Assembly (NCBI GenBank): GCA_008636045.1
Contig: SNRW01000007.1
Coordinates: 1 to 49,897 of the forward strand
Length of the DNA stretch: 49,897 nucleotides
Direction: 5' to 3'
From: Streblomastix strix
Lineage: Eukaryota
The notes below the pieces were generated by a model. The model saw only the letters and a list, made by a program, of their open reading frames with translations, made no database searches and was not told where the DNA came from. The translations under genes were made by a program, and so were the position numbers. How positions within the stretch are numbered: position 1 is the first letter of the stretch; every line of letters begins with the position of its first letter. Shown one piece after another: positions 1,409 to 29,410 of the stretch.

Positions 1409-2834
1409 TTTATCCTGATTTTTATATAAATAAAATAGAAATTGAAATAATTAATAAGAAAACTAAAAGAGAAAGAATTATAAATTGGTAATTTAGTGTA
1501 TAAAATAAATGGAAATGGCGAAATAAAGCGTTATTTAAGAAAAAAATCTTTTTTAACGTTAGAAAGCATCATATTTATGACGCATTTTGTAAAAATTAAG
1601 TGTCGCGCCTATTGAAGTTGTATAAAATCATGTTAAAATTAAATTTTGATTTATGTAACATGTGTAAGAAATGATATTATGCGAAGAATTTTGAGTAAGC
1701 AATTAAGAAGCAATTATAATTAGGTATAAGTAGAATTGTTGAAAAATTGTTATAAAGATTAATTGCAATATTCAGCATATATCTATTTAGAGTATTGTTA
1801 TGTTGTTCACCCGTATTTTGCAAAATTATATTTTAGCATCATATAACAACTTATAAATAATTTTGAATGTGATATTAGATAAATTTATTAAATGATGATT
1901 GAAAAAGCTCATATCATAGCAAATTTATAATTAATTTATTGGAAAAATTGAATTCCAAAATTGGAGTTTGTAACGCTTCTAATTCTTGTAAAATGTTTCT
2001 ATTAAATATAAATTTATTATTTTTAAATAAATTATTTAATAAATTAATACTATTTCAATATATAATTGTTTACATTCAAATAATAAATTTTTTTTTTATA
2101 TCATTTAATTGAAAAACAACTCGTCAGCTAAGTTATTCAGGATACCAATTATTTAAATATATAACAAATAATCAAATGTCTATTTTTAAACAAGAATTAT
2201 TGCTAAATTAATGCAAATCTGTAATAAACATTAATTAATAAATTTCTCGATACTATTATAAGTTTATTCAAAATCGAATCGATATTGAAATATTGATTTG
2301 TTATCCCCGTATCTCCTTATCTCACCTCTTTATTGAGATATCATTGTGGCTCCAATACGTTCGGTTCGTGTACATGAATCCGACCTATGGGTTGGCCAAT
2401 TTGATGTGGCTAAGAATTCAAATAAGAAAACAACAACTTTACAAAAGTAATAAAAATTACATTTGAGTCCCGGTAAAGAGAGTTCGGCAGAACGAGGCAA
2501 GACAAGAAGAAATTAAAAATATAATAGTCAAAGTGGGAAAAAATTAAATAATAAAAACCCTCTGGGAAAAGTATTGATTAACGTTAATAAAAAACCCAGT
2601 TAAATATATAAAAAATTTAGAAAAACTTTAGAAAAAACTAAATTGAGAGTAAAAAATTGTTTTGAAAAAACTTCTCTCATGGGGAAAATAAATAACTAAG
2701 AGTAAAAAACCCCAATAAAATTGATAAATTAATGGTTTAACTGCTCTCTTGAGGAAAAGAAAATATTGAATCTAATAGAAAAGCATCAGGGAATAGTGGT
2801 ATATGTATAAAATAATTGTTAAACTGTTAAATTA

Positions 2835-3140
2835 AAAAATTAAATGCGCCAATTCTCCATTGACTGTTTTATCATTCTTGAGGATTGGTTTAATTTCACT
2901 CATTCGTATATTTCTTCTTCATATTCGTCGATGCAATTCGTTGACAACATCTCTTTATTGATAATCCGTTATATCCAACTCATCAAACTTTAACAGGGTA
3001 GTGTCCTTATCTCTGTATTATCATTCCATGCGCTCCAGCCCACCATCAACATCATTCGGCTTGTTCGATCAATAATATATAAACTCATCTTCAAATTTGT
3101 TGGATTTTTTTCTATCCTTAATTTGCACATTTCATCTGTC
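2835..3140 (-). pseudogene. Degenerate ORF overlapping the left inverted repeat of the Tc1-like element and running outward from it
   Basis: Protein-like frame NVQIKDRKKSNKFEDEFIYY*SNKPNDVDGGLERME*QYRDKDTTLLKFDELDITDYQQRDVVNELHRRI*RRNIRMSEIKPILKND with three TGA; higher GC than flanks; no recognisable family. Confidence 0.35.
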
Positions 3141-3316
3141 ATGAATACCAATCTATTTATATTAAATAATTTTTAAATAAATGAATTTTATATTATATAT
3201 ATGACTTAATAGTAGCATATCATTAATTAAAGTCCATTTGTCGGGCATACATTGAAAAAATAAAGATGTATTAATTTTGCTCATTAAATATTGAACCAAT
3301 TTATTTGATAAAATCA
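3078..3316. repeat. Left inverted repeat of the Tc1-like element
   Basis: tataaactcatcttcaaatttgttgga...ttatttgataaaatca is the reverse complement, with scattered mismatches, of 4462-4700. Confidence 0.9.
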
Positions 3317-3372
3317 ATTTTTCGTTCGAATGGTTATGTATTTACAAATGCGTAATATATGATGTGAAACTC

Positions 3373-4383
3373 TCATTGTACATATTTTCCTCCTCGCTTT
3401 AACAACTCAGTAAATCTTTTCTAGAACGAGTTATTGAGTAGTAGTATGTCTTTTTTTGTGATTTTCCTTCCTGCTCCTTGAATTCCAGCCCAGAGATCTT
3501 CTTCATTTTCGTAGTTGACTCCATCTTCATATACTTTGCGAACCAAGATTGACCACATGTTTTCGACTGGATTTAGGTCAGGTGATAGCGCTGGCCAGTC
3601 CAGAAATGAAAATCCGTAACTTTCAAGGTCTTTCAAGGTCTCCTTGTTTTTGTGACAGGATGCACTATCCATCTAGTATTTGAATTATTCTCCAAGTTCG
3701 GTATGAATCGATGGAAATACTTAACTTAACAATAGTTCTCTCTATACAACTGCTGTTATGCTTCCTTGCATTCTATCGTGAGACAAAATGCCGGCACTAT
3801 TAATTGTAGCAAGCACCATAACACCTTTGTATTTCCCGTAGTCCTTGCTGTATATCGAATTATCATCCTTCTCATCAAGTGAATACCAATAATAAGCCCA
3901 TCCGTCAGGTCCATCAAATCGAAATTTTTTCTCATCTGAGAAAATAATTTCAGTTTTCTTAGATTGATCATTCAATAAGAATTCTTCTGCAAATTGTATT
4001 CTTTTAGCAATATGTCTTTCCGTTAATTTAGGACGTCTTCTAAGTCTTTTTTTCTTTATTATCATGATATGCAACGTTCGTAATGTTGTCGACGGAGAAC
4101 TGTTAAGTGACAGCACTTTTGTTAATGTTCTATGGGATACTTTTCGATGTTTTTTTCAGATATCTGGAAATTCTTCTAAATGCGCGAACAGCAACCTTTG
4201 GCTTTGGACCTCTCTTTTTCGGTTCAAGGAGATTATTTCGATGAAGTAGCACTTGTCTAACCGTTTCGTAAGGTATTCCTTGCTTTTAAGAGATCTTTGT
4301 GAAAGATAACTTCTTTTTTTCACTCAATTCAATGATTCGCTTTTTCTTCGCCAGTGACAACGCAACGCCTCTAACCTTGCCAT
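3373..4383 (-). pseudogene. Tc1-family DD34E transposase with 5' frameshifts
   Basis: Motifs IIFSDEKKFRFDGPDG, YQMDSASCH (Q encoded by TAG) and WPALSPDLNPVENMW; 34 residues between second D and E. Track ORFs 3742-4116 and 3421-3672 are in one frame joined by TAA/TAG and end at TGA 3373-3375. Frameshifts occur near 4370 and in the homopolymer near 4155. Confidence 0.92.
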
Positions 4384-4461
4384 AAAAATGACATATTAAT
4401 TGAAAATTATTAGAAAAATTAGTAAATTAAACGTTAACGCACTCATACGTTTGATGACTAA

Positions 4462-4700
4462 TGATTTTATCAAATAATTTGGCTCAATATTTAATGGGCA
4501 AAATTAATACATCTTTATTTTTTCAATGTGTGCTCAACAAACAGACTTTAATTAATGATATATTACTAGTAAGTCATATATATAATATAAAATTCATTTA
4601 TTTAAATATTATTTAATATAAATAGATTGGTATTCATGACAGATGAAATGTACAAATTAAGGATAAAAAAATATCCAACAAATTTGAAGCTGAGTTTATA
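4462..4700. repeat. Right inverted repeat of the Tc1-like element, interrupted at 4700
   Basis: Reverse complement of 3078-3316; a short continuation (tatatattatt-atc) reappears at 11853-11866. Confidence 0.9.
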
Positions 4701-4975
4701 GACTGCACCACAGGGCTTTAATTCTGCCACGCTATTTGTAACCATAATCTCCGTGCCAAATGACTTTTATTACTAAGCTCAATTCATCAATGTGATGCAC
4801 AAATGATATTGACAATTCTATATAAATATCCATGACACAAATGAACAAAATTCATTAATGTGAGGCACAAATAACATAGACAATTCTATGTAAATATCTA
4901 TGACACAAATGAAAATAATTTATCAATGTGATACACAAATGATATAGACAATTCTAAGCAAACATCTATGGCACA
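4701..4975. repeat. Left TIR of the PolB element, including three tandem 68-bp units (starts 4781, 4849, 4917)
   Basis: Unit ~aattcatcaatgtgatgcacaaatgatattgacaattctatataaatatccatgacacaaatgaacaa repeated with period 68; each unit has two CACAAATGA-like motifs. Confidence 0.88.
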
Positions 4976-4997
4976 TTCATAATCAAAAATAGTGATA

Positions 4998-7900
4998 TCA
5001 TTAATCAATTAAGTAGTGATCTGCATTAAATTCATACATGAATGGTGCACAACATCCATTAGATAATACTACCATTTTATTATGAATACCTGTTAGCGCT
5101 GACTTTTCTATACTAATCATGGACATTATCCCCATTTTCTTCTAAAAATTATTAGTTGTCACATTGATATTACACCCATCATTCAAGCATTTAATGTAAT
5201 CATCATTTGTTAGATTTGTCTTCTTTTCACTGACTCCTTTCATCCGATTCACTAATGAAACTATGTCTTCATTTTATTCATTTCCATTGTATAGACTATA
5301 ACATTTAGGTGCAAGACAAATGATATTTTCTCCTTATGATTCAGTAGTGAGATTCATTAATCTCTTCTCTTTAGCAACAGTACAATTGTCCCATGGAAGC
5401 CTCTCTTTATTATGCAGGTCATAGAACAGTTAGTCTTTAATCACATACTTCAATCCTTATTTATAACCTTCAGTTTATGATCCAGCAATAGAGAAATACA
5501 TTGAGTCAGTATCCATATTACAGAAGTGAACTCAATTCATATCAATATATTTATAGAGGAAGTTATATATAAAATTTAAAAACCAAAACTTGCTATTATC
5601 CAGTGTAAATACAGCTTCTTGCAATGGCTTATTACACTTAAATTATGTAGGTGACTCACTATTCATATATTATGCTTCTTCAATAACATCACCATCAGAA
5701 TTGTATATATCTTCACTTAATTTTCTAGTTGCCTTATGATCTTATTTCAATTACTTGAGTGATGCTTGTCTAGCATTGTTAAATGATATCCTATCAAATT
5801 TTGCATTATTTTATCCCTCTCCTCCAAAAGCACTATTCAGAATCTATTTGTAGTATAACGATTTTGTATCATTGTGTTGACTAATTGCATCCTATCTTTT
5901 ACTCATCATTGTACACACAAATGATTCAAAACCTAGGTGTTTATCAAATAGGGCTATTGAATCAATGTCATCAATAATTAAATTACAATAGTCAATCAAA
6001 AACCATAAAATGTAACAAGTGAAACATATAAATTGGTTATATGTTGATATTAATGATGTTAGTTTTGTAGTTGATTTGTCAACAGTAAGTTTCTATGATT
6101 TCATCTTATTACACATAAATTCACCTATCTATTCAAATGAATTAAAATATGTCAATTTTCTCCAAATTGTTGCTAAACATTTGTGTGAATTAATATGTTT
6201 TTCATCAATATGACATTAAATTTTGACACAGAACAGTTATCCTTTGTCATTAAATCTATCATCACTCATAATTATATCACGAGCTTTTTTTTTTGAATTA
6301 TTAGATGAACATTTGTAACAATTAATTATTCCACCTGCTTGATATACACTGTGATTTGTATATGAATTATTTTTGTTGAAGAATCCATTATAGACGGAGG
6401 GAAGAAGAGAATTGAAATCTAAGTCAAAAATGTGGGTAACAATATACTAATTATCATATGATGTTATTGTTTTAGTAACATGATTATATATAAGTTTGTT
6501 GATGTGTGTGATACCTTTCAAATTACATTAATGATACACATTAGACAGTCCACCTTACATACATTCCTTTAACATATTTTATACGGATTCGTTGTTAATT
6601 GTCATTGACAGATGTTCATGGATAGCATATTTCATTAATTGTATGTTTAATTTACTAATATCATTATCTTTGTCAGCCTTAACAGTATTACATATTTAAT
6701 AAGCTAGTTAACAGTTCTATTTTGTATGACAAATTGAATTATCAATTCTGTCTAAAGTAGGTTTGTTTTCTTTAGTGAATTTGTTGTGGCATAGAAGACA
6801 TGGCTCCCTAAAAACTTTATCTCTAAACCAATCAATATTATCTTCAGTAACATTATTAATTGTATCCCTCTTAGCAAACTCATCTTGATTAATATATCCT
6901 TTGACTTTGTAATTCCACCAGTATTAAGTAACTTCGAATTATTCAAATCCATTAACTATATTATAACTTGTATTGATAACGAATTTATCATAACAGTACT
7001 TGTATTTAATTTAACTAGCAATTTGAGCTAATGATATTCAACCTAGCATATCAACTTTCTCTTTCCATGTAATTTGAAAAAGATGACTGAGTGGGTTAAT
7101 CATACAAGTAACATCCCTGATATTATAGTGCTTTAGATACTCCCATTTATTTTCAATATTGATTGAATCATTACAGTACTGTTCATAATCTTCGTCACTA
7201 ATATTCTTATTATTAAGTTTGTCAAAGAAATTATCTTTAGTAAATGGAGTTATTAGTCCTAATACCTATTTGTAGTTATCATAATTGAATGATCCATATG
7301 GTAATATACCCTTTGTTAGTTTTATACCTTTAGTACCAAATTTCTCAACGAATTACTTTAATGTGTTGTTTGGTAGGATGAATAATAATATATCGATAAA
7401 TTTCAAGTCAAAATCATAATCTTAATGTGATACTACTGTCTATTAAGCTTATGTTGTTGATCTCATATATTAAATTTTAGTCTTATTTTTAATTAAGTGT
7501 TTTAGTAACAAATTCATTTCAAACTTCTTAGAATTGAATCCTATAACTGACACTTGAGGCTTATATGGAATATAGTTCTTGTCATTGATTAATACTTCTG
7601 GAATATTCGATTAATTAGCTTCATTGACTTTTATAGCAACTTCAAACAATTAACTTATCCATTATTCAATAAAATCAGTTCCGTTTCGTAAATCAAAATA
7701 TAATGTAATAATTTAATCATTTATTGTTTCTGCTGATGCTACAGATAACGGTTCTTATTAAGCTAACACATTGTCTTCATTAGTTATGTTCTCTACTGTC
7801 TCAAAATCAAATGTAATGTAATTTAGTGAAGGAGTTAACTAATCTGATTAGCATGTTGCTACCAATTTCTAGAGTAACTTACTATTTGATATATGTGGAT

Positions 7901-10112
7901 AATATGACTTTGGTAAGTGATCTAATTTAACTAATTTAGATGTCTCAGGACCCTAACAGAACTTCAAATATCTAGCAAGGTCTCGCTTATAATTCTAATT
8001 CTTAGTATTAAATATCATCTAACAGTTGCGTGGACAGAGCTTTCCATTAATTACTTTATCAATATAACTAATATATATCGCATGGATTTCACCTACTAAT
8101 GACAATGGAACTAATAGAACATTAACGGTAAAATAGTCATTATCGATAATGTATTCATCATATTTGTTAAATTATTCGACATTGCAACGATTTGTTTTTT
8201 TATTTTACCTCATCACATGTGTATGTTATTATATTTAATTTGAATATTTGTTGATATCTTTCGAGATCAGTAACTAAATTGAAACGTTTATATGATTCAA
8301 GTAGCTAATTATTAGCTCTATTTAATCTCTAACTTGAGTTAACGTCATAGTATTAGAGAAACAGTTTAAAAGCATCACTAACTCTAGTTCTTGTTTAATC
8401 AATCTCAGGATGTAAAGCAAATGATGCGACTATGAACCAACAAATTTTGTAATCACATTCTACGTTTCTAGTAGTTCCTTTTTTTTTGAAGTGCTAACAT
8501 ATTCTATCCATTTTAGTACCTAACGGCAGTCTATAAACAATAATCAAAAACGAATAAAGTGCTACCTTTAATGTAGTTGAGTCTTCATGAGTTGCGTTTT
8601 AATAATCGGATAGTAAATCAACAACTTTCTATTTGAAATAGTTATTAGTTTGATTATCTCGAACTATAGTGTTAGGTAGAGTCTTGTTACTGTTAACAGC
8701 ACTAGGTCCTGTGTGAGAGTAATGATATTCATCTAATGTTTGTTAATGCTTGTAGATTTATTTCTTTTTCTAACAGATAGATCCAAAATGAATGTATACT
8801 TTATAGGATTTAGCTTTCTCTAACTCATGTACTTAATCAATTTTATCTTTCAGTTGCTATAAGTCATAGAAATGATCGTAATAGTATTAGAAATATGGCT
8901 CTTTATTGAATATATCTTTTGACTTCATTAATTTATCAGATAGTCCTTCAATATTGACTTCATTCTTATTTTAGAATTTCTTGCGTGCCTGAGCTAATGT
9001 GGCATAATAAACTGATAAATTCTATTGTGTGAAGATAACGAATGCTTTCTATTCAAGTTCTCTATTTTTATTTAATTATTGTGTTTTTGTTATATTTGGT
9101 TCATTAAAGTGATCCATATGTAATCCATGTTACTCATCATTAAATATGTAATCCATGTTACTCATCATTAAGCTTTTTAACTCTTCTATTGAATTCTTTA
9201 GCACCTAATTTTGTTTCTAAGAAACTGAGAATTCTAAATGGTTTTTCACTTTATCTCTTATATCTTTAATTGATGAGTATCTATTACAATTATTCGTATA
9301 GCTTATATCTCTTCCATTTGCCTTAAATCACTTTAGCAGCATTTACTTACTATTTCATTATTTATTACGCTAAGTGTCTTCGATAATGCTTTTGGATTAG
9401 AACAGCTGCTTTATTCTATTTCTCTAACTTATCCTTTAATTCTTGTATCTTTTATTGATGTAATTGTTCTTATTAATCTAATTCTTACTAATGTTTCAAT
9501 TATTGTTCATCAAATTATTACTTATAATTCTCATTAATCTCTTTTCGCTACGAACTATGTTCACGGCATAAATGCTATTGAATCTATTCTTCCAAATCAA
9601 ATTTCTCTCTTAATATATTATTAATTGTTTGTAAAGACTCTTATAACTAATGTATCTAGTTAGTTATTTATTGCTGTGCTTGTATCAATTATTATGTACG
9701 TTATCTTCGACCACTTTCTACAAATTTTTATTTATAATTATCTCTGAATTTACTAGAATTGAATAGACCATTATCATCAATATTATCAGGTTAATTCAAA
9801 TCGTTTATAATTTCATCAATACTTGTATTTAATTGTAGTTATTGATCATTAACTGGTTTCATTATTGGTTCGATTATTGGTTCCATTATTGATTATTATT
9901 GATTATTATTAATATTGTTATAGTTTGACTAATTTATTAACGAATGTTGTAATTGTTATACCATTTCTCTTCGAACCTTAATATCCTTATTAGTGAATAT
10001 GAGGTAATAATATATCAAGTGATTACTATCTTGTTGAATGTATTGTTGGGATTGATAAGTGTAATGAGTTAATTAAAGTGTATAATTAGTCAAGAGATAG
10101 GTACTTGTTCAT
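4998..10112 (-). pseudogene. Giant (~1700-codon) protein-primed-type family B DNA polymerase with long N-terminal extension; disrupted
   Basis: With TAR=Gln: ExoI YITFDFETVE (~7800), ExoII VIGFNSKKFE (~7530), KGILPY (~7300), ExoIII YLKHYNIRDV (~7120), motif A DLDFNSLLPS (~6410), motif B YKQILNSAFG (~5840), motif C CNMDTDSMYF (~5510), then APKCY and KGV; final TGA 4998-5000. In-frame TGA at 5532-5534 and 7038-7040; frameshifts in the N-terminal half, including a 28-bp tandem duplication at 9116-9171. Likely ATG at 10112. Confidence 0.9.
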
Positions 10113-10209
10113 TTTACTATAGCAATAAATTAATAAAAAAAAATTTTTTTAAAAGTTGATCAAAAGTTGATTAATAAATGTATGTTTGTCTTTTTATTCT
10201 TAATACAAA

Positions 10210-11082
10210 ATGAGTAAAACTTATGATGATGCTGAAATCAATGAATAAGTATAATATAATGATAATAATAACACCTTTGGTGTCGGCATAAATGCTACCA
10301 ACTCTGTTGGCTCTCATGGTATTGATGAATAATTAACATAAAAATAAAAATCTACTCTATTAAATGAATTATCTTAATTACATGATTCAAAATCAGTTAG
10401 AAAATATTTAATAATTCATCCTCAATTAATGTAAATATCATTACATGAGATGAATACTGCGTTGCGAGTTCCGGATTATTAACTTTCACGAAGAAATGAT
10501 AAATTAATATTATATACTGCTAAACATTTAAAAGAAAAAAGTGACAACAATAATTCTAATATTACTTGAGAATTTGATGATTAAAATTCTAATGAATCTC
10601 CGTAACTAACTCCATCTATACAATAGTCACAGATGATTCCTTAAGTATAGGAATAGCTTAAAAATAAAACACAATAAAATTTATTGATTGATAATGGAAT
10701 ATTTTAAAGTGATTTAGGTTAAATTTTAGAAGCAAGTTTTGAATATTTACGTTAAATAACTGGAATTGATTCAAATATTAGCAATGATTAATATAGTTAG
10801 GTTAGATAGTAATATATTGATAACACTAATCAATACGATATCATAAAAATAGATAAATTAATCACTTTACTTGATTAAACTCTAATTGGATTATACATTA
10901 GAAATATATATTCATTATCAACCCTATTCTTTGAATAAAATTAATACATACATAAATCTTAACATTAATAATTCATTGAATAATTATATAGACAAAATAA
11001 TCCTAAATATCAACAAGAAAGTAATATTGCAGAGAGATTAGGTTTCAAAAAACATAACAATGTATTAAATATACATCAATGA
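10210..11082 (+). pseudogene. ORF2 of the PolB element, 290 codons, unknown function, one in-frame TGA
   Basis: ATG 10210 to TGA 11080-11082 is open with TAR=Gln except TGA at 10567-10569 (MSKTYDDAEINEQ...LLNELSQLHDSKSVRKYLIIHPQL...NIAERLGFKKHNNVLNIHQ); divergent from the PolB start across 97 bp. Confidence 0.7.
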
Positions 11083-11578
11083 TTTAGTAAATCTTTATTT
11101 TTATTCATAATATTTGAAAATATTGATACACAAAGTACTCTCATATTTGAAATTATTTGAAAAATTTTAGCAAATTATTTCATACTACATTTACACACAA
11201 CACTATAGCACTATATTAATTAGTATACATATTAGTGATGGATATAATGATATATACTATTTATATAAACAATTGATATATTTAGTTTATTAGTTAGTGA
11301 AGAAATTATTAGTCAAAATTGTTAAATTTTTTTATAAATTTTGAAAATTACAGGCCTGTAATTCAAATAATTTTGAACATTTTTGAACATTTTTGGTAAT
11401 TATTTCTTATCATTAATTTGATGATAGATATGTAAATAATTTGTTTAGATTATTAAATAACTTTATGAAAATGCTTAATATTCTGAAGTCATAGATTTGA
11501 AACCATAGGTTTGAGTTTCACTAAGCTCTGCTAACTATTTGAGTAACATAAATTGTAAATTTTGATGATTAATGTGTT

Positions 11579-11851
11579 TACTCGAAGTGTAAAAATGCAA
11601 AGCATTATCATTTGAATCATAGGTATTTGAATAGAATTGTTACTCGAAGAGTCAGAATGCAAAGCGTTATCCATATCATTTGTGTATTACATTGATGAAT
11701 TATGTTCATTTGTATCATAGATATTTGTATAGAATTGTCCATATCATTTGAGAATTACTTTGATGAATTGATCATTAGTTGCAAAAGTCATTTGGTATGG
11801 AGATTATGGTTACAATTAGCGCGGCAGAATTAGTAGACTGTGATGCAGCCC
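11579..11851. repeat. Right TIR of the PolB element (~11665-11851) plus a subterminal 62-bp-period repeat
   Basis: Reverse complement of 4701-~4890; tactcgaag...aatgcaaagc.ttatc occurs at 11579 and 11641. Confidence 0.85.
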
Positions 11852-11892
11852 ATATATATTATTATCATTAGTTGCAGGTTCAAATAAAAGAG

Positions 11893-12680
11893 TTTCAATT
11901 ACTGTTCAGCTAATAATTACTTATAATTCTCAATAATTTCCTTTGGCTAGTCTTTAGGCTATTCAATTTCATTATCCAAATCAAATTCTTCTCTTAAAAT
12001 ATCATTAAATGTTTATAGTTACTCATAAAGCTAATGTATCTAGTTAGTGATTTATTATTATGCTTGCAACATTTATTACATGCGCTATCTTTGACCACTT
12101 TCATCATATTTTTATATATAATTAGCTCTGTACTTATCAGGATTGAATACATCTTCATCATAAATATTGTCAGACAAGCTCAATTTATTTATAATATGAT
12201 TAATATTTTTGGCTGATTTTAGTTTTTTTCATTAGTTTCATTAATGTTCAACTATTATTATGAATTCATCAATACTTATAATTAATTATGGTAACTGTTA
12301 ATCATTATTCAACTATTATTACTATTCATTAACTTCTTCAGTTATTGGCTATAAATTGGTTACTGTTATTGTTCATTAATGATCAACTATTATTGCAATT
12401 CATTAACTGTTTCTATTATTGGCTATAATTAGGGTTTTTGTTATTGTTCAACGAATTCTAATTTTTATTACTGTTAGTCATTTCTTTCAGCAACAAATTG
12501 ATTTACAAATGCAACTATTTCAGATATAATAGTTATGTGGTCTTAGTAATGTAATCATTATAATTCATTAGTTAACATATTTCTTAATTCAACTACTGTA
12601 TGATTGCGTTGGTATACAACTTATAATTGATCTAGTAAATTTTAAATCTATGTTTTATTCATTCGATACTTCTCCAACAT
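11893..12680 (-). pseudogene. N-terminal fragment of a second PolB-type ORF
   Basis: ESGQRQRMQQMLQAQQQITNQIHQLYEQLQTFNDILREEFDL aligns with ESGRRQRTQQLIQAQQQITNQIHQLQESLQTINNILREKFDL at ~9590-9720; ATG 12680; in-frame TGA 12555-12557; truncated near 11893. Confidence 0.78.
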
Positions 12681-12750: not shown

Positions 12751-13080
12751 ATGACATAAGAATGGTAGTCGTTATTAACGTAAATTCCATCAATCAAATC
12801 AATTAAAGAAAAGCATTAATTTGTAGAAAAGAATTATGAATTGATATCTAAAGCAAAAGCGTTCACATTGAATAAATACATGACAATATCATTATTTAAA
12901 TTTTATTATAAAAATAATCGATTAGATGTTTATCATATAACAGAACATAAATTATACCATTGCAAGCAAGTTGAATTATTGCAATAGACAGCTAATTAAC
13001 TTAGTGATTAGAATGAAGATATTAATGAAAATTCTGGTGGATTATATATTATTTTTATCCATAATATTTTTAATTATTGA
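12751..13080 (+). CDS. 109-aa ORF2-like protein of the second element
   Basis: Open ATG 12751 to TGA 13078-13080 (MTQEWQSLLTQIPSIKSIKEKHQFVEKNYELISKAKAFTLNKYMTISLFKFYYKNNRLDVYH...); syntenic with ORF2 and has a similar hydrophobic pattern by eye. Confidence 0.55.
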
Positions 13081-13857
13081 TACTTAAAGTACACACGTAT
13101 TTGAAAATATTTGAAAAAATTTGATAATTTATTTCATACTATTTTTATACACAACCCTACAGCACTATCCTAATTGCTATTCATATTAATGATGTATGTA
13201 GTGATATAGACTATACATATAAGTAATTGATATAATTAGTCTATTAGTTAGTGAAGAAATTAACAGTTAAAATTGCTAAATTTTTTTATAAATTTTGAAA
13301 ATAAGACATTTATAATTCAAATCATTTTGAATATTTTTGATCTTTTTTTAAATATTAATCCATATCATTTGTGCAATACAGGAATTTAATTGAGCAATAA
13401 TGGAAATTAATTGTTCAATAAAGAAATTTAAATGTTCAATAAAGGAAAAAATAACTACCATAGAATTTAATTATTACTCGATGTCATTATCCTTATATTT
13501 ATTTAATACGTATATAAAAAAATCAGGAGTATATTTCAGTCCAAGTATTTTTCACAATTATTTCAGTTTGCTTTCTACATTAAGAAGTTTGTTAATATAA
13601 AAAGTAAATAATTCAATTAACCAATATATTCAACTATTTTCCAATCTCTGAGCAACTTTAGGAACCAATAGGATTTATTCTGCTGTGAAGCGATGATTAG
13701 GATTCTAGATATAAGAAATTTAATAGAATAAATGTAACTTAAATACTGATTTTAATTTGAAAAAAAAAAAACATTTTAAATAAAACATTCAGAATTGATT
13801 ATGAATAATTTTACACTCATTAATTAATTTATTCGAAATTTAGTAAAATTTATAAAA

Positions 13858-19932: not shown

Positions 19933-22900
19933 TCAACGATTATTACGTTTGAAGATATTTGATATCAAACTCTTTAATTCATGTCCGATAGTTGTCTCAT
20001 CATCCCATTGATTCCTTTATACCTTCAAATGTGCTTCAATTTCTTCATTAAGACCTTCTGCTTCACTTTATTCTTCTGATTCCTTGAAAAGAACCAGTTG
20101 TGTTGAAGATGATGGTCAATTTGGATCTGTTTCTCCAACTGTATGAAGAAGAGCAATTAGGAAATTGTTTAAGTTATTAAATGCTCTGTAAATCTCATTA
20201 TCATTTTCAACTTCATTTCCACCACAAGATGAAATTGAGAATGAAAGAGCACCTGCATAGAATGATTGACAAAGTTGGAATTTTGCAGTATTATCACCAT
20301 TCATTTGAATATAACTAAGATCTTACCTACTGAAGTTTCTAATGCTAACTATGTCTTTCTCATCATTCTGAAATGAATTTGATCCTAATTTGTAATTGCT
20401 TAACTTTACTAATGAGGAAATCAGATTTGGTGATGTGGATGCTATTTAACAAGCAGTAGAATTGTCTCTGATAAGAATTTAAAGAAGATTTAATGAAGAA
20501 ATAACGACAGTTACTGAAGAGAATGATATTATCAGCTGAGAAAGATGTTAAATAATATTGTGTTTGTCAATGAGGAAATGTTGGAACATGAGTTTGTTTG
20601 AAGCAACTACTGCAAGTGCATTTAATGATGCTGCTTATAACTGTTATATTCCAGGAGATGCTTGAAATGCAAGACGATGTTTGCAAAATAACTCAACTGG
20701 ACAATTGATATGAATTAGATATATTATTCTTTCACAAATTAGTATACCAATATTCTGAGGAATCTTGAATTCATAATAATTATCTTTTATTATAAATTAT
20801 CCAATTGAATCAATTGATTTCACAATTTTCATTATTTATTTATCAAATTTTTCAATTTATTCTTCTGTTCTTATTTATTTAAAATATTCCTTTCTATTAT
20901 TAATTAATTAATCCAAATTATGGACGATATTCTACTACATTACTTTTGAACATGCATCTTCCATTTCTGTTTCAAACGGACCACACTTATTAAGCTATAT
21001 ATATATCTGAGTTAAAAGAACAACAGTATTTGAATATATAATATTATCATCTACTTATTCTTCTTATTCTATTTTATCTATAATTAATTATTCAATCATA
21101 TTAATTAGTCCAGATTCTTCAAAGATATCGAAGAATACATTAATGTGTTATTATTAATCCCCTTTTTCTGATAATTTTTCAATAATATTAAGAAGAATCC
21201 TTTAATATTCAGAAGTGCAGTCTCCAATTCTTTTCAGAATTATATCAATCATCCAAATATCAAATATCTTTATTAATTCATTAATTTCTTTATTCTTTAT
21301 ATCTTCAATTAATTATTATGCTTTTGATTATTTTTCTTATTCGGGTTATAATCTACTTCCAAGAATGTAAGAATCACTTTTATCCTTTATTTTGATGATT
21401 CCTTTTTTCATTTCATCTTTAATTTAATATCCTTCCATCATGTTCAAATATAATTTCATCAATTATTCTGTGATTTCAGAAAAAGGAATATTATCATTTT
21501 CTTTTTCTTCTTATTCTATTTTCTTTTATATTAATTATTCAATCTTCACTAATAGCCTAGATTTTTGAAAGATAATCTAGAATTCATTATCATCATATTA
21601 TTGAATTCCTTTTTCTATTAATTATTTAATAATATTAATAATAATCTTTTCTGATTCAGAAGAGCAATTTCCAATTCGTTTAATAATTAAATTTAGAACC
21701 CTAATATCAAATATTTGTCCAATATCATTTTCTTCGTAATATGCAAAATTAGTGTATAATTCTTCGAGAGTAACAAAACTTTGCAGATTAATCACTTACA
21801 TGCGAAATTTTTCCAGAGAACTATTATAGTCTTCTTCATTTTAACCCCAAAATCTCCTTGGTCTGAATACACCTTGATGTTACCTCCTAAAAAATCCCCT
21901 CTAATATCCCTTATACCCAGGTTATCCTTATCCAAATCTTCTTCTGTAAGGAAGAAATTGTTCTTCATCATCGATCTACTGGTTATCAAAATAATCTCGT
22001 TTCCATTCTGGTTGGATTTCATTTATATCAATATTCCATTATTTATCATCCAAAATCTATGGACAAAAGATCTAATTCTTCTGATCTAAATAATGCAATT
22101 CAATTCTGATTTTTCTTCCATCCAATTCATACCCATTAAGCTGCTATTGAGCTCGATTTGCAGTTTCAAAGTCTTCCATATCAACAAACCCAAAACCACG
22201 AGGTACACCATTAAAAGTTGGAATAGTCGCACATTTTCTGGGAATAATTATTAGAATAAATAAGTATGCACTAATAATATATAAAAATACATAATCCCAA
22301 TTGTCTCAAATAATTTCCCAATCGTCTATGCAGTTGTAAATGTATCTAGATTTCTAATAAATAATCTTGAAGTCATCGATTGAGTTTCACCTAAAAAGAA
22401 AATAAAAAATATTTATGAATATTATTAAATAAATATTTTAATAATGAATATAGAATAAAAGTATGAAACTAATATCATACAATCTGCATTTGAGAGAATT
22501 CTTAATGGAAAATGAAGTATTTCAGTGGGATAATCATCTTATTCTTCTTTCTAATAAAATAAATAAAAAATTAGAAAAATGAATAATGATGATAAATTTA
22601 TTTAAACTTATATTACAATAATTAAAAATTAATAATAATTAAAAAATTATTTTTTCATCTGATTGAACTTCAGTTTCTCTATTATCGAAAGGCGCACTTC
22701 TTCTTTCTAACAATGGTGAACCATCCTATTTATTATTTCTAAATCTTCTGAATCCATCTAGACTTTTATTCTATTTTCTTGTTTGTATTTCTTTATCCAA
22801 CTTTTGGAAATTGTTCTTTTATTCTTTTGATAATTCTACACGAAGTTGCCTTCCTTCCAATTCATACCCATTAAGCTGCTATTGAGCTCGATTTGCAGTT

Positions 22901-23843
22901 TCAAAGTCTTCCATATCAACAAACCCAAAACCGAGAGATGTACCATTAAAAGATGCAATAGTCGCACTTTTTCTAGGAATAATTAATAGAATAAATAAGT
23001 TTGCACTAATAATATATCAACATACACAATCCCTACTGTCTAAAATAGATGTGCTATCGTCTCTGTAGTTGTCATTGAATCTAGATTTCCAATAAATATT
23101 CTTGGTGTCTCTGTTAGAATTTATGTTAAAAAGAAAAAAATTATTTATGAATATTATTAAATAAATATTTTAATAATGAATATAGAATAAAAGTATGAAA
23201 CTAATATCATACAATCTGCATTTGAGAGAATTCTTAATGGAAAATGAAGTATTTCAGTGGGATAATCATCTTATTCTTCTTTCTAATAAAATAAATAAAA
23301 AATTAGAAAAATGAATAATGATGATAAATTTATTTAAACTTATATTACAATAATTAAAAATTAATAATAATTAAAAAATTATTTTTTCATCTGATTGAAC
23401 TTCAGTTTCTCTATTATCGAAAGGCGCACTTCTTCTTTCTAACAATGGTGAACCATCCTATTTATTATTTCTAAATCTTCTGAATCCATCTAGACCTTTA
23501 CTCTAATTCCTTATTTGTATTTCTCCATCCAACTTTTGAAAATTGTTCTTTTATTCTTGTGACAATTATATACGAAGCTGCCTTCCTTCCAATTCATACC
23601 CATTAAGCTGTTATTGGGCTCTATTTGCAGTTTCAAAGTCTTCCATATCAACAAATCCAAAACCGAGGGATGCGTCATTAAAAGTTGCAATATTCGCACT
23701 TTTTCTAGGAATAATTATTAGAATAAATAAGTATGCACTAATAATATATCAACATACACAATCCCTATTGTCTCAAATAATTTCCCAATCGTCTCTGCAC
23801 TTGTCTATGCGTTTAGATTTCCAATAAATAATCTTGATGTCAT
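19933..23843 (-). CDS. Multi-exon protein: three tandem RRM domains, an R/G/F-rich linker and lineage-specific helical domains; in-frame TGA at 20116-20118
   Basis: Each RRM has RNP2 (L/I)FI(G/R)NL and RNP1 (L/R)GFGFVDM, then QQQLNGYEL(E/D)GR. The third RRM runs without a break into a ~2.3-kb frame ending at TGA 19933-19935. Confidence 0.8.
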
Positions 23844-23870
23844 CGATTGTGTTTCACCTAAAAAGAAAAA
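22095..23870. repeat. Tandem ~720-bp exon/intron units carrying the RRM (two full copies and one partial)
   Basis: 22410-22770 and 23135-23495 are nearly identical including introns; RRM exons recur near 22100-22390, 22850-23110 and 23570-23855. Confidence 0.9.
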
Positions 23871-24637
23871 AATTCATATAAATTAGTCAAAAAAGCAGTT
23901 TACAACGTGCTTTTTTCCAATTTTAATAAAAAATTAAGTGAATGGATAATTCTGTTATTTGCTAATTAAATATGATAATTATTTATATTTAATAAGATAA
24001 TTAATATAATTCTGTTTAAATAATGAACTTATTTGAAAAATTATATAAGTATTGCCGAGAAAAAGCGATAAAAATAATAAAATTTTCATTCTAAGATAAA
24101 AATAAATAATTAATAAAATAATATCATCAACTAGCTAAGTATATATTTAAGAAATTTACTATTCCTACTTCAAACCTTATATATACTTCTGTCAATATAA
24201 TTCAATTTCCTTGTCAACAACAGACCAATATTGTAACAGCTTTATTTATTTTGAATGTCGTTTGCTTAATCATAATTTATTAATAAACGTTTATATGTGT
24301 ATTTTTAACTTTAAGCAGAAAAATCAGCAATTTAAATTAATTCGAAATTTTTCTCGTTAATAAATGAAATTAGATGATAATTAAGAAGATTTTTCAAACA
24401 AAAGGCAAATTTTCGAATTTATTTATTTAAATATAACAAACATTACAATATTTTGATATCATAATTAATGTTCTATTTGTTTTTTACTTTTAATTTAATA
24501 CATATAATCACCATGGCGATAACATTTGAGTTTTACTAACATAATTTATTTATTGTTTGTATTTTTGCTATTTCAATAAATATTTAACAATTTATTTCTT
24601 CATTTTTTTGATCTTTATTTGCTTTATTCGTCAGAAA

Positions 24638-26374: not shown

Positions 26375-29300
26375 ATGGACAACGATCTTGAAGAAGAAAT
26401 TGGGAGAAATTTATAACCTGAATACGAAGTTTGCTTTTGTATATATTTAACTTTGCTTTTGAATATATTTAACTTTGCTTTTGAATATAAATGACTTTGC
26501 TTTTAAATATATTTAACTTTGCTTTTAAACATTTTTGACTTTGCTTTTAACTTATTCTACTTAAATATATATTTCTTTAATATTATTAAGCATTCACCTG
26601 CTACAATAGAATAAATTCGTTCTTTTCGGTAAGAAATTGAGGAGATACGATGAGAAAAAGACGATATCGAAAAGAGATTAAATGATCAGATAAGAATTCT
26701 TGATTCAAATTACAGAGATGAGAAAGAGCAGAGAGAAACAATTGAAAGGAAATTAAAACAATCTGAAGAAACAGCAAGTAAAGAAAAGAGGGAGAAAATT
26801 GAGCTGTAATTAAAATTGCAGAATGAAGAAAAAGATAAGAAAATTGTTTAATAGAAATTTAATGAATTTAAATAAGTTTCATATGAAAAAGAATAAGAAG
26901 CAGAATCCTAATTGAATGAGAAAGAAATAGAAAGAAGGAAAACAGAATACGCATTGAAATATGAATAAGAAGAAAAGAAAGAAGCAATTGATAGATCAAA
27001 TGAATTTGAAAAGAATTATTAATAAGAAGTTGCAAGAAGAAGAAATGTTGAAGTAGAAAGAGATAAATTGAGTAAAGAAAATGATAAATTAAAAAGGGAC
27101 ATTGAAAGATTGAATAAAGAAATTGAGAATTAATAAAATCTTGTGAGTGAATATGAAATTAAATATTAAGCAGAAGTTGAAGCAAAAGAAAGAATGAAGA
27201 ATGAATATGAAGAAAAGATTGAATAATTAAAAAAAGATTCAGAAGAAAGAATTGAGAAAGAAAAGAAGAATTCATAAAATGAGATATTTAGAAGAATTTA
27301 ATTAGAAAATGATATAAAGAATTAAATTAAATTAAAAGAAAATGCACTTTTACATGTTCAATAATCTGAGAACGATAATTCTGAGTTAGAAGCAAAAATT
27401 ATTGAATTGTAAAATGAAGTAGAAATTTTGAAAGAAGAAATCAATAAAGAAAATTTAAAATCTGAAAAGGAAATATAAAAATCTTCTGAAGAAGAAAGAA
27501 AAAGAAAAGAAATTGAAGATCATAAATAAATTATTGAGAATTAAAATTAGACAATCAAAAGAGAAAATTAAAAAATTAAAATTGAAGTTAATCGAATAAA
27601 GAAGAAATTTGGGGAAGAAATTGTTGAAAATGAAATTTAATATATTTAATAAAAAGAGAAAGAAAAAGAAGATTAAATATCCGAGTTAAAAGAACAAATT
27701 GAAAGAAAAAAAGTTGAAGTAACTATGAAAGCTAAAATTGATGAAAAAGAAAAAAAATAATTAAATGAATAAATTAAATGGCTGAAACTCCCAGATGATT
27801 TATTAAAGAAACTTGGTGAAGATTTAATGAAACCTTTATTAGGAACGGAAGTTTAGAAGAAAGAAGCTTTACAATTGCTAGAAAATGATTGTAAATTCTT
27901 ATCATTGGCTTTAAATGATAGAAAGGATGATGATGGAAGAAAAAGAGTTATTAAATCAGGAGTAATTGAAGGATTCAATAATGTATTTGAGAATTATGAA
28001 CTAAATTCAATCACTCGAACATAATCATAATCATTCTTTCATATAACAAACAATTCAAGTGATGAATGCAATCTTCTCCTTTTAGAAAAGAAACCATTTC
28101 TTGGTTTGATTCGTCTTCTTGAACACACAAATAATCATATTGTTAATGAATCCATTTCTTCAATATTCTTAGTTCTCCAAACTGGAATAAATACTACACC
28201 AAAATCAGATCCACATCCTCATTATGAATTAATATAAGAAATTGATGGAATTAAGAAGATCTTTGCTTTGTTTCTAAAGAATGGGAACAAATAAAGCAGA
28301 GACAGATCAGCATTATGCATTGGATATCTGTTCAAAGCTCGGGAGATAGCAGATCCAATTATGAGATAAGAGATAATAAATCATCTCAAGAGTCTTCTGA
28401 ATGATGAAAATGCATGGGTGAAAGAAGGAGCAAAATATGCACTGAAATATCTTGCTCAAAATGAATGTATGCTTAATATTTTAAACATAAATAAATTATT
28501 ATTTAATTTAATTTAGTTATTAAATTACAATATTTGTTTTATATTAATTATTATTATTTTTATTCATATTATATTTAAATTATTTTCTTTTTTACAAATA
28601 TCAAAGAAAACCGCTCTAAAATTTTGAATGAATAAGAATTAAAAAGAGTTGGTTAAGATTTGAAATAACCAATTGATGGAACAGAAGAATAGTAGAAAGA
28701 TATTACTCAGAGACAAGAAACCGATCTTCTTCTTCTTTCATCAGTAATAAAAGGTCGTAATGACACTGAACTTCGCAAACGGATTATTTCATCTGGAATT
28801 GTTGAATCACTGCTGACAATCTTCACCATTAGAGATCTTAATTCAATCACTCGGGCATATTCATAATCATTCTTTGATCTCACAAACAATTCAAGTGATG
28901 AAAGCAAACTTCTCATTTACAATAAGAAACCATATCCTGGTTTAATTCGCCTTCTTGAACACACAAATAATGATATTACAAGTGATACAATCATTTCAAT
29001 CTTATTAATTCTCCAAACTGGTTCCAACACTACAAAAGAATCAGATCCACATCCTCATTATGAATAAATATAAGAAAGTGATGGAATAAAGGAGATATTT
29101 GCTTTGTTTCAAAAGAATGGGAACAAATACAGCAGAGACAGATCAGCATTATGCATTGGATATCTCTTCAAAGCTCAGGAGATAGCAGATCCAATTATGA
29201 GACAAGAAATTATCAATCATATCAAGAGTCTTATAAATGATTCTGATGCATGGGTGAAGGGAAGAGCAAAAAATGCACTGAAATATCTTGCTCAAAATGC

Positions 29301-29410
29301 TGGTATGATAAATTATTAAATGGAATATTAAAAATATTTGTTTCTTCCATATTTTAAACCCAGAAAACAAAGTTGTGATTGAAGCTGGTGGCTTTACCAT
29401 TGCAAAGTGA
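26375..29410 (+). CDS. Long coiled-coil protein with two tandem ARM/HEAT-like lineage-specific domains; in-frame TGA at 26651-26653
   Basis: Exons ~26375-26428, 26591-28466, ~28607-29302, ~29364-29410. E/K/Q-rich region followed by duplicated LNSITR...GLIRLLEH...DPHPHYE...SRDRSALCIGYLFKA.EIADPIMRQEIINH...ALKYLAQN; ends IEAGGFTIAK then TGA. Confidence 0.8.
26430..26551. repeat. Intronic 22-bp tandem repeat (~5.5 copies)
   Basis: tttgcttttgaatatatttaac repeated from the splice donor onward. Confidence 0.88.

Follow-up and report, generated by a model that had tools for sequence, protein, structure and literature searches.

A decayed, integrase-less Polinton-derived element with a protein-primed-type DNA polymerase gene in the genome of Streblomastix strix

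The first 49,897 nucleotides of contig SNRW01000007.1 from the oxymonad Streblomastix strix (assembly GCA_008636045.1), referred to here as the window, have a G+C content of ~26%, and their translation fits table 6. Near the left end lies an element bounded by terminal inverted repeats (TIRs), ~7.2 kb long once a nested Tc1/mariner is subtracted, which is a real, decayed and reduced Polinton and is not a member of that group by full gene set. As stated in the initial annotation, open reading frame (ORF) calling with the standard code is blind to the element: table 1 gives no ORF of at least 150 amino acids (aa) in the interval, and table 6 reveals the genes. The features of this copy (the focal copy) and of a diverged neighbouring copy are as follows.

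3067..3079, no strand: outer tip of the left TIR, 12 of 13 nt identical to the right tip when that is reverse-complemented
3080..4698, minus strand: nested Tc1/mariner, outside the element proper, with 239-nt TIRs and a frameshifted transposase (Pfam DDE_3, E 6.6e-13)
4701..4985, no strand: left TIR, including three 68-bp subrepeats (4781-4984)
4998..10112, minus strand: pseudogene for a family B DNA polymerase of the protein-primed type (pPolB, hereafter PolB), 5.1 kb, start at 10112 and stop at 4998-5000, measured against an intact 1653-aa relative
6687..6800, minus strand: PacI-like HNH insert in PolB, from a motif table, one cysteine changed in the focal copy
10113..10209, no strand: head-to-head intergenic region, 97 bp, between start codons at 10112 (minus) and 10210 (plus)
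10210..11082, plus strand: ORF2, 290 codons, with an in-frame TGA at 10567-69
11095..11414, no strand: conserved AT-rich block, 320 bp, 82% identical to the block of the neighbour
11658..11865, no strand: right TIR, tip degraded, clear target-site duplication absent
11892..12662, minus strand: 5' end of the neighbour's PolB, a second subtype, 74% identical in DNA to the focal copy and matching the intact protein P0356
12751..13080, plus strand: small divergent ORF of the neighbour, 109 codons, weakly similar to the small gene C7 (see below) and unalignable to ORF2
13049..13380, no strand: block of the neighbour, with a remnant of a TIR immediately after it (13358-13380, 21 of 23 nt identical to 11669-11691)

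Both TIRs described in the initial annotation are present (4697-4960 and 11658-11854, 81–82% complementary across 80–188 nt), and at ~210–300 bp and 81–82% likeness they fall within the Polinton/Maverick range of 100–1500 bp. The left end had been placed at 4701, which was not borne out: the outer 13 nt of the tip lie at 3067-3079, split off by the Tc1/mariner, which inserted into a TA of the left TIR tip and duplicated it (3078-79 and 4699-4700). The loose ends of read contigs show that the TIRs of other copies extend ~20 nt past 4701 and 11852. The tip at 3067-3079 is, we presume, similar to the adenovirus core origin. Between the TIRs the interval is filled as described by PolB (minus strand), a divergent ORF in plus orientation and the 320-bp block; the single giant PolB ORF proved to be four frame pieces. 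The 97-bp intergenic region is likely a shared promoter. The block is apparently non-coding, has no match in Rfam and gave a fold z-score of -1.8.

The focal PolB is 74–79% identical to the intact 1653-aa relative. It contains three frameshifts (near 9.9, 9.15 and 8.2–8.35 kb), two in-frame TGA codons (7038-40 and 5532-34), a 31-bp duplication near 9.15 kb and an altered motif A. TGA was rejected as a sense codon, since the two PolB sites are occupied by Cys and Arg in intact relatives and the focal copy is also frameshifted. The damage to PolB and the TGA in ORF2, which had been overlooked earlier, mean that both genes are broken; the element is real and the focal copy is dead.

The domain order of PolB is a coiled coil with an IQ motif, a putative terminal protein (TP) and vOTU domain, an exonuclease, the HNH insert and the palm. 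Exo I–III and motifs A–C are found in its relatives and define a protein-primed family B type, broken in the focal copy; Pfam DNA_pol_B_2 was detected in 4 of 34 aligned relatives. The Cys and His motifs of the putative TP/vOTU region are kept in five of the six relatives shown. A search of PDB sequences with PolB gave no significant match. For the HNH insert the best PDB match was PacI, a weak one (E 0.48), and Pfam recognised HNH in a T. vaginalis PolB relative (E 1.9e-4). PacI-like HNH inserts are widespread in metamonad PolBs, including those of T. vaginalis (P0003, P0019, P0028, P0064 and P0409); Jeong et al. describe an HNH insert as unique to nematode and oomycete pPolB2. The IQ calmodulin-binding motif (9362-9412, minus strand; Pfam E 2.8e-5) in the N-terminal coiled coil is retained in intact copies and is followed by a second IQ-like stretch.

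The initial annotation reported no integrase, capsid or packaging ATPase, and profile searches of the window in six frames found not even remnants of them. Profiles for these three and five more Polinton gene families gave no domain with E <0.02 in six frames of the whole window. A profile of the integrases of eight relatives gave no domain with E <1, and coding room for an integrase is lacking; the capsid profile (150 proteins) and the ATPase profile matched nothing within the element. No Ulp1-like protease was recognised by Pfam on the ORFs of the element, no profile aimed at the protease being used. The element has no ORF for RNA polymerase or capping enzymes and no space for them.

A homologue search with ORF2 retained 0 of 538 candidates, and Pfam gave no match. 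A small gene present in 14 loci and conserved in full metamonad Polintons, for which the label C7 was coined here, gave a profile for which the ORF2 segment ranked first among 602 window segments (E 0.03) and the small ORF of the neighbour third (E 0.6). In the reverse search of 2577 locus segments, 14 of them C7, the top match was a C7 member for both ORF2 (E 0.02) and the neighbour's ORF (E 1.1). Shuffled controls reached the match in 3 of 2000 cases for ORF2 and 100 of 2000 for the neighbour's ORF; hhalign probabilities were only 1–2%, and the match was spotted post hoc. On this profile evidence residues 40–110 of ORF2 are probably homologous to C7, and ORF2 is probably not the orphan it had been taken for. 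A model of ORF2 is mostly helical and of low confidence, with a helix-hairpin (predicted local distance difference test, pLDDT, 65–84 at residues 41–100), and the C7 protein of locus L010 gave HTH-like leads in a protein atlas at scores of at most 0.85; a guess from these would be a small DNA-binding helper. As an integrase or capsid, ORF2 was rejected, the profiles having no match and fold searches giving nothing usable.

The proteins closest to the focal PolB are other S. strix PolBs (63–85% identity), and identity to a T. vaginalis protein is 39%. A search with the polymerase part retained 81 of 3383 candidates: 41 from S. strix, one T. vaginalis cluster (350 members) and metagenomic proteins. 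No PolB relative was found in IMG/VR or prokaryote genomes, and no TIR pattern in IMG/VR. A PolB phylogeny, which the initial annotation had proposed, was built from 70 rows by a quick method with midpoint rooting and Shimodaira-Hasegawa-like approximate likelihood-ratio test (SH-aLRT) support only; it holds no plasmid or adenovirus outgroup and leaves out partial models from S. strix as well as six metagenome proteins. In this tree, which is without plasmid PolBs, the focal PolB is nested among metamonad Polintons, in an 8-row S. strix clade (support 100), followed by another S. strix clade and after that by one of 19 rows (support 96).

Five of 70 metagenome loci fall nearest to the wider PolB clade. 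Four of the five have an integrase or ATPase gene directly after PolB; the fifth (1.5 kb) has neither. Further away, L008 and L010 are each a complete element of 14 kb, with TIRs, integrase, ATPase and a double jelly-roll capsid, which folds with low confidence onto the PBCV-1 and Sputnik capsids. Two further loci (L002 and L003) are AT-rich and Polinton-like, with PolB, ATPase, a capsid-like gene and C7, and with no match to the integrase profile in the stretches searched; L002 also carries a KilA-N gene. Since the focal PolB nests in metamonad Polintons and four of the five wider-clade loci carry integrase or ATPase, the compact state, as judged from sequence comparison, appears to be a product of gene loss from Polintons and not a separate plasmid lineage.

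The neighbouring copy was said to have the same right-end layout. The order of parts is indeed the same, but the neighbour is merely a 1.5-kb right-end fragment whose small ORF cannot be aligned to ORF2; its intergenic gap is 88 bp (between 12662 and 12751). Both subtypes have the order PolB, small ORF, block and TIR, with PolB N-termini barely alignable, so that the layout is older than the split of the subtypes. A codon-position test of focal against neighbouring copy showed no bias and was uninformative owing to indels.

Full-length PolB copies are 84–91% identical to each other and retain the Exo and palm motifs, and many related copies keep intact catalytic motifs. Summed depth over read contigs aligned to the window, which is not a copy number, was 2100–7700 in PolB bins against 54–160 in host-gene bins (13.7–16.4 kb) in run X1. 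In the same run the spacer of the neighbour had a depth of 770–1580, like its PolB part (890–2010), and the two blocks together reached ~3300–3500, compared with 3060–3720 for PolB at 9.0–9.5 kb. Three contigs among those listed join block to TIR (11387-11675, 11394-11669 and 13373-11617). A similar pattern was seen, at low depth, in run X3 from another study. A 6375-bp contig carries an intact 1653-aa PolB, and an element of the neighbour's type is expected to measure ~6.4 kb. In other copies contigs pass from the TIR into flanking DNA (at least 255 nt in run X2). The gene model P0367 continues across the TIR and takes in a flanking ORF (residues 1453-1695) with two GG motifs and no match among the proteins compared. 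We take these motifs to resemble protease sites of Polinton core proteins.

The S. strix capsid profile gave 366 matches, the 120 listed being all from S. strix, so that capsid-bearing Polintons, which could act as helpers, occur in the same host species; Table S4 of PMC10120064, in its available part, gives 820 capsid genes. Linkage of PolB to capsid genes was assessed by equal contig size, which is no proof of linkage, and only for contigs of at least 8 kb, because equal size misleads when contigs are short: 4262 bp has no space for both tags 026673 and 026675, and size was rejected as evidence there. The 68 capsid contigs compared came from 120 of the 366 matches and part of 14 capsid clusters. 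One of 20 same-clade PolB contigs equals a listed capsid contig in size (0 of 18 before the cluster look-ups). This leans towards compact copies without deciding the matter. The second subtype, the block-TIR joints and this linkage count hint at an amplified family rather than a one-off deletion.

We regard the focal copy as a decayed copy of a Polinton-derived element reduced to its TIRs, PolB and one small gene and, with a probability of about 0.58, as one of an amplified 6.4–7.2-kb family that would replicate with its own PolB and be integrated by an integrase in trans; most copies of the focal PolB clade would then be compact. Linear copies would be excised and then replicated by their own TP-primed PolB. 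By analogy with Krupovic et al., the PolB N-terminus, represented here by motifs, would act as terminal protein and the vOTU domain would cleave it off; both priming and cleavage are modelled on 10.1101/2024.03.18.585575. Integration would fall to an integrase encoded by full Polintons that share the genome, a helper that may recognise the TIR tips. The initial annotation proposed a distinct family or an endogenised linear plasmid. Several indirect lines support a compact, integrase-less, multi-copy form; neither term is supported in the deeper sense, as PolB falls inside the metamonad Polintons, sister lineages have integrase and ATPase next to PolB, and ORF2 likely belongs to C7.

Several observations weigh against this reading. 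Besides depth not being copy number, joints with short sides can mislead, and those between block and TIR have sides of merely 24–30 nt; run X1 is possibly the source sample of the window itself. ORF2 depth is 76–212 in X1, ~20x below that of PolB, and hence what lies upstream of a focal-type PolB start is in most copies something else, possibly longer. A contig size of 10113 is common to tag 012095, a capsid, and tag 012092, a PolB of the clade, and a more distant control PolB clade scored 1 of 6 in the linkage test, which thus discriminates poorly. No second TIR-to-TIR copy was seen, whole-genome sequence being outside the scope of the work. A target-site duplication (5–8 bp expected) was not seen by eye, the tips being degraded and the left one split by Tc1. 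The C7 match falls short of the usual thresholds.

One rival reading is ordinary internal deletion, by which the genome has, or had until recently, full-size Polintons with this PolB and these TIRs, and the copies in the window are two of many truncated, dead relics. The integrase or ATPase beside PolB in four of five wider-clade loci, the same-clade PolB possibly located on one contig with a capsid gene, the rarity of ORF2-type copies and the breakage of both genes would all suit such relics. We consider this explanation less likely, given a layout common to two diverged subtypes, a neighbour whose spacer depth matches its PolB depth, and 19 of 20 long clade contigs that match no listed capsid contig.

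Considerably less probable is a split virus, in which the compact unit supplies polymerase to PolB-less elements with capsid, ATPase, integrase and the same TIRs. Among the matches listed, the S. strix capsids do group by their identity to the query, at about 85, 70 and 59%, and only a 58% capsid is tied to a PolB, one of another clade (tags 005858/005861); however, the PolB search under-samples distant clades, so that the remaining capsids could each have a PolB, and no shared TIR was seen. An endogenised, mainly extrachromosomal linear plasmid integrating by accident or through the HNH domain is very improbable, since, despite plasmid-like gene content, a PolB with HNH insert and the origin of cytoplasmic plasmids in Polintons that lost the capsid module, as set out in 10.1101/2024.03.18.585575, contigs of other copies continue from the TIR into flanks (run X2 and P0367), space for RNA polymerase or capping genes is lacking, and HNH inserts also occur in PolBs of integrase-bearing relatives.

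Among known systems, the element shares PolB, TIRs and a probable C7 gene with metamonad Maverick/Polintons (MMN capsid group, Bellas et al. 2023; TvMav; pPolB2, Jeong et al.). At ~7 kb it is shorter than TvMav (10–28 kb; PMC12289875) and than Polintons (13–25 kb), from which it also differs in having no integrase, ATPase or capsid and a PolB that reaches right up to the TIR. Cytoplasmic linear plasmids (pGKL type) and transpovirons are likewise capsid-less, Polinton-derived linear TIR replicons with a TP-vOTU-type N-terminus (motifs only in our case); the element differs in being nuclear-integrated, in using the host genetic code, and in having no RNA polymerase, capping enzyme or superfamily 1 (SF1) helicase. 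The Polinton-like viruses AHEV_PLV1 and Ca_PLV1, one of them integrated, also have PolB and no detectable integrase, and PMC11296320 suggests integration in trans and reports divergent capsid proteins, for which the element has no room. In the literature searched, which did not extend to subscription journals and hence not to the two papers that founded the Polinton field, no description was found of a PolB-only Polinton family or of nuclear Polinton-to-plasmid intermediates. Non-autonomous Polinton derivatives, which Kapitonov and Jurka are said to have described in 2006, reportedly keep the TIRs and need help in trans to integrate. In contrast to these, the present element keeps the largest gene, PolB, intact in many copies, and replication would therefore be autonomous and integration and packaging would not.

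To the right of the element are intron-bearing host genes (ABC transporter, papain and RRM), and tandemly duplicated host genes occupy 21795-23873 and 26654-29379 (RRM units ~732 bp apart; ARM-like genes). Just left of the element, 2190-3066 is a repeat whose summed depth exceeds that of every other part to which contigs were aligned, and its tested ORFs have no Pfam match. A high-depth stretch at 13380-13540, likely another repeat, truncates the TIR of the neighbour. Exact look-up of ten window ORFs found none.

If merely deletion debris, the element is ordinary. It is possible, at somewhat less than even odds, that it belongs to a stable lineage of Polinton satellites with two genes, able to replicate, without integrase or capsid and amplified to about a hundred copies, which would parasitise the capsid-bearing Polintons of the host or supply polymerase to them. 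Helper dependence would then be testable from one assembly. A multiplying family with only a polymerase would mean that Polinton modules work in trans and would define the minimal needs in cis (TIR and block), and a two-gene satellite lineage would represent a living stage on the way from Polintons to linear plasmids.

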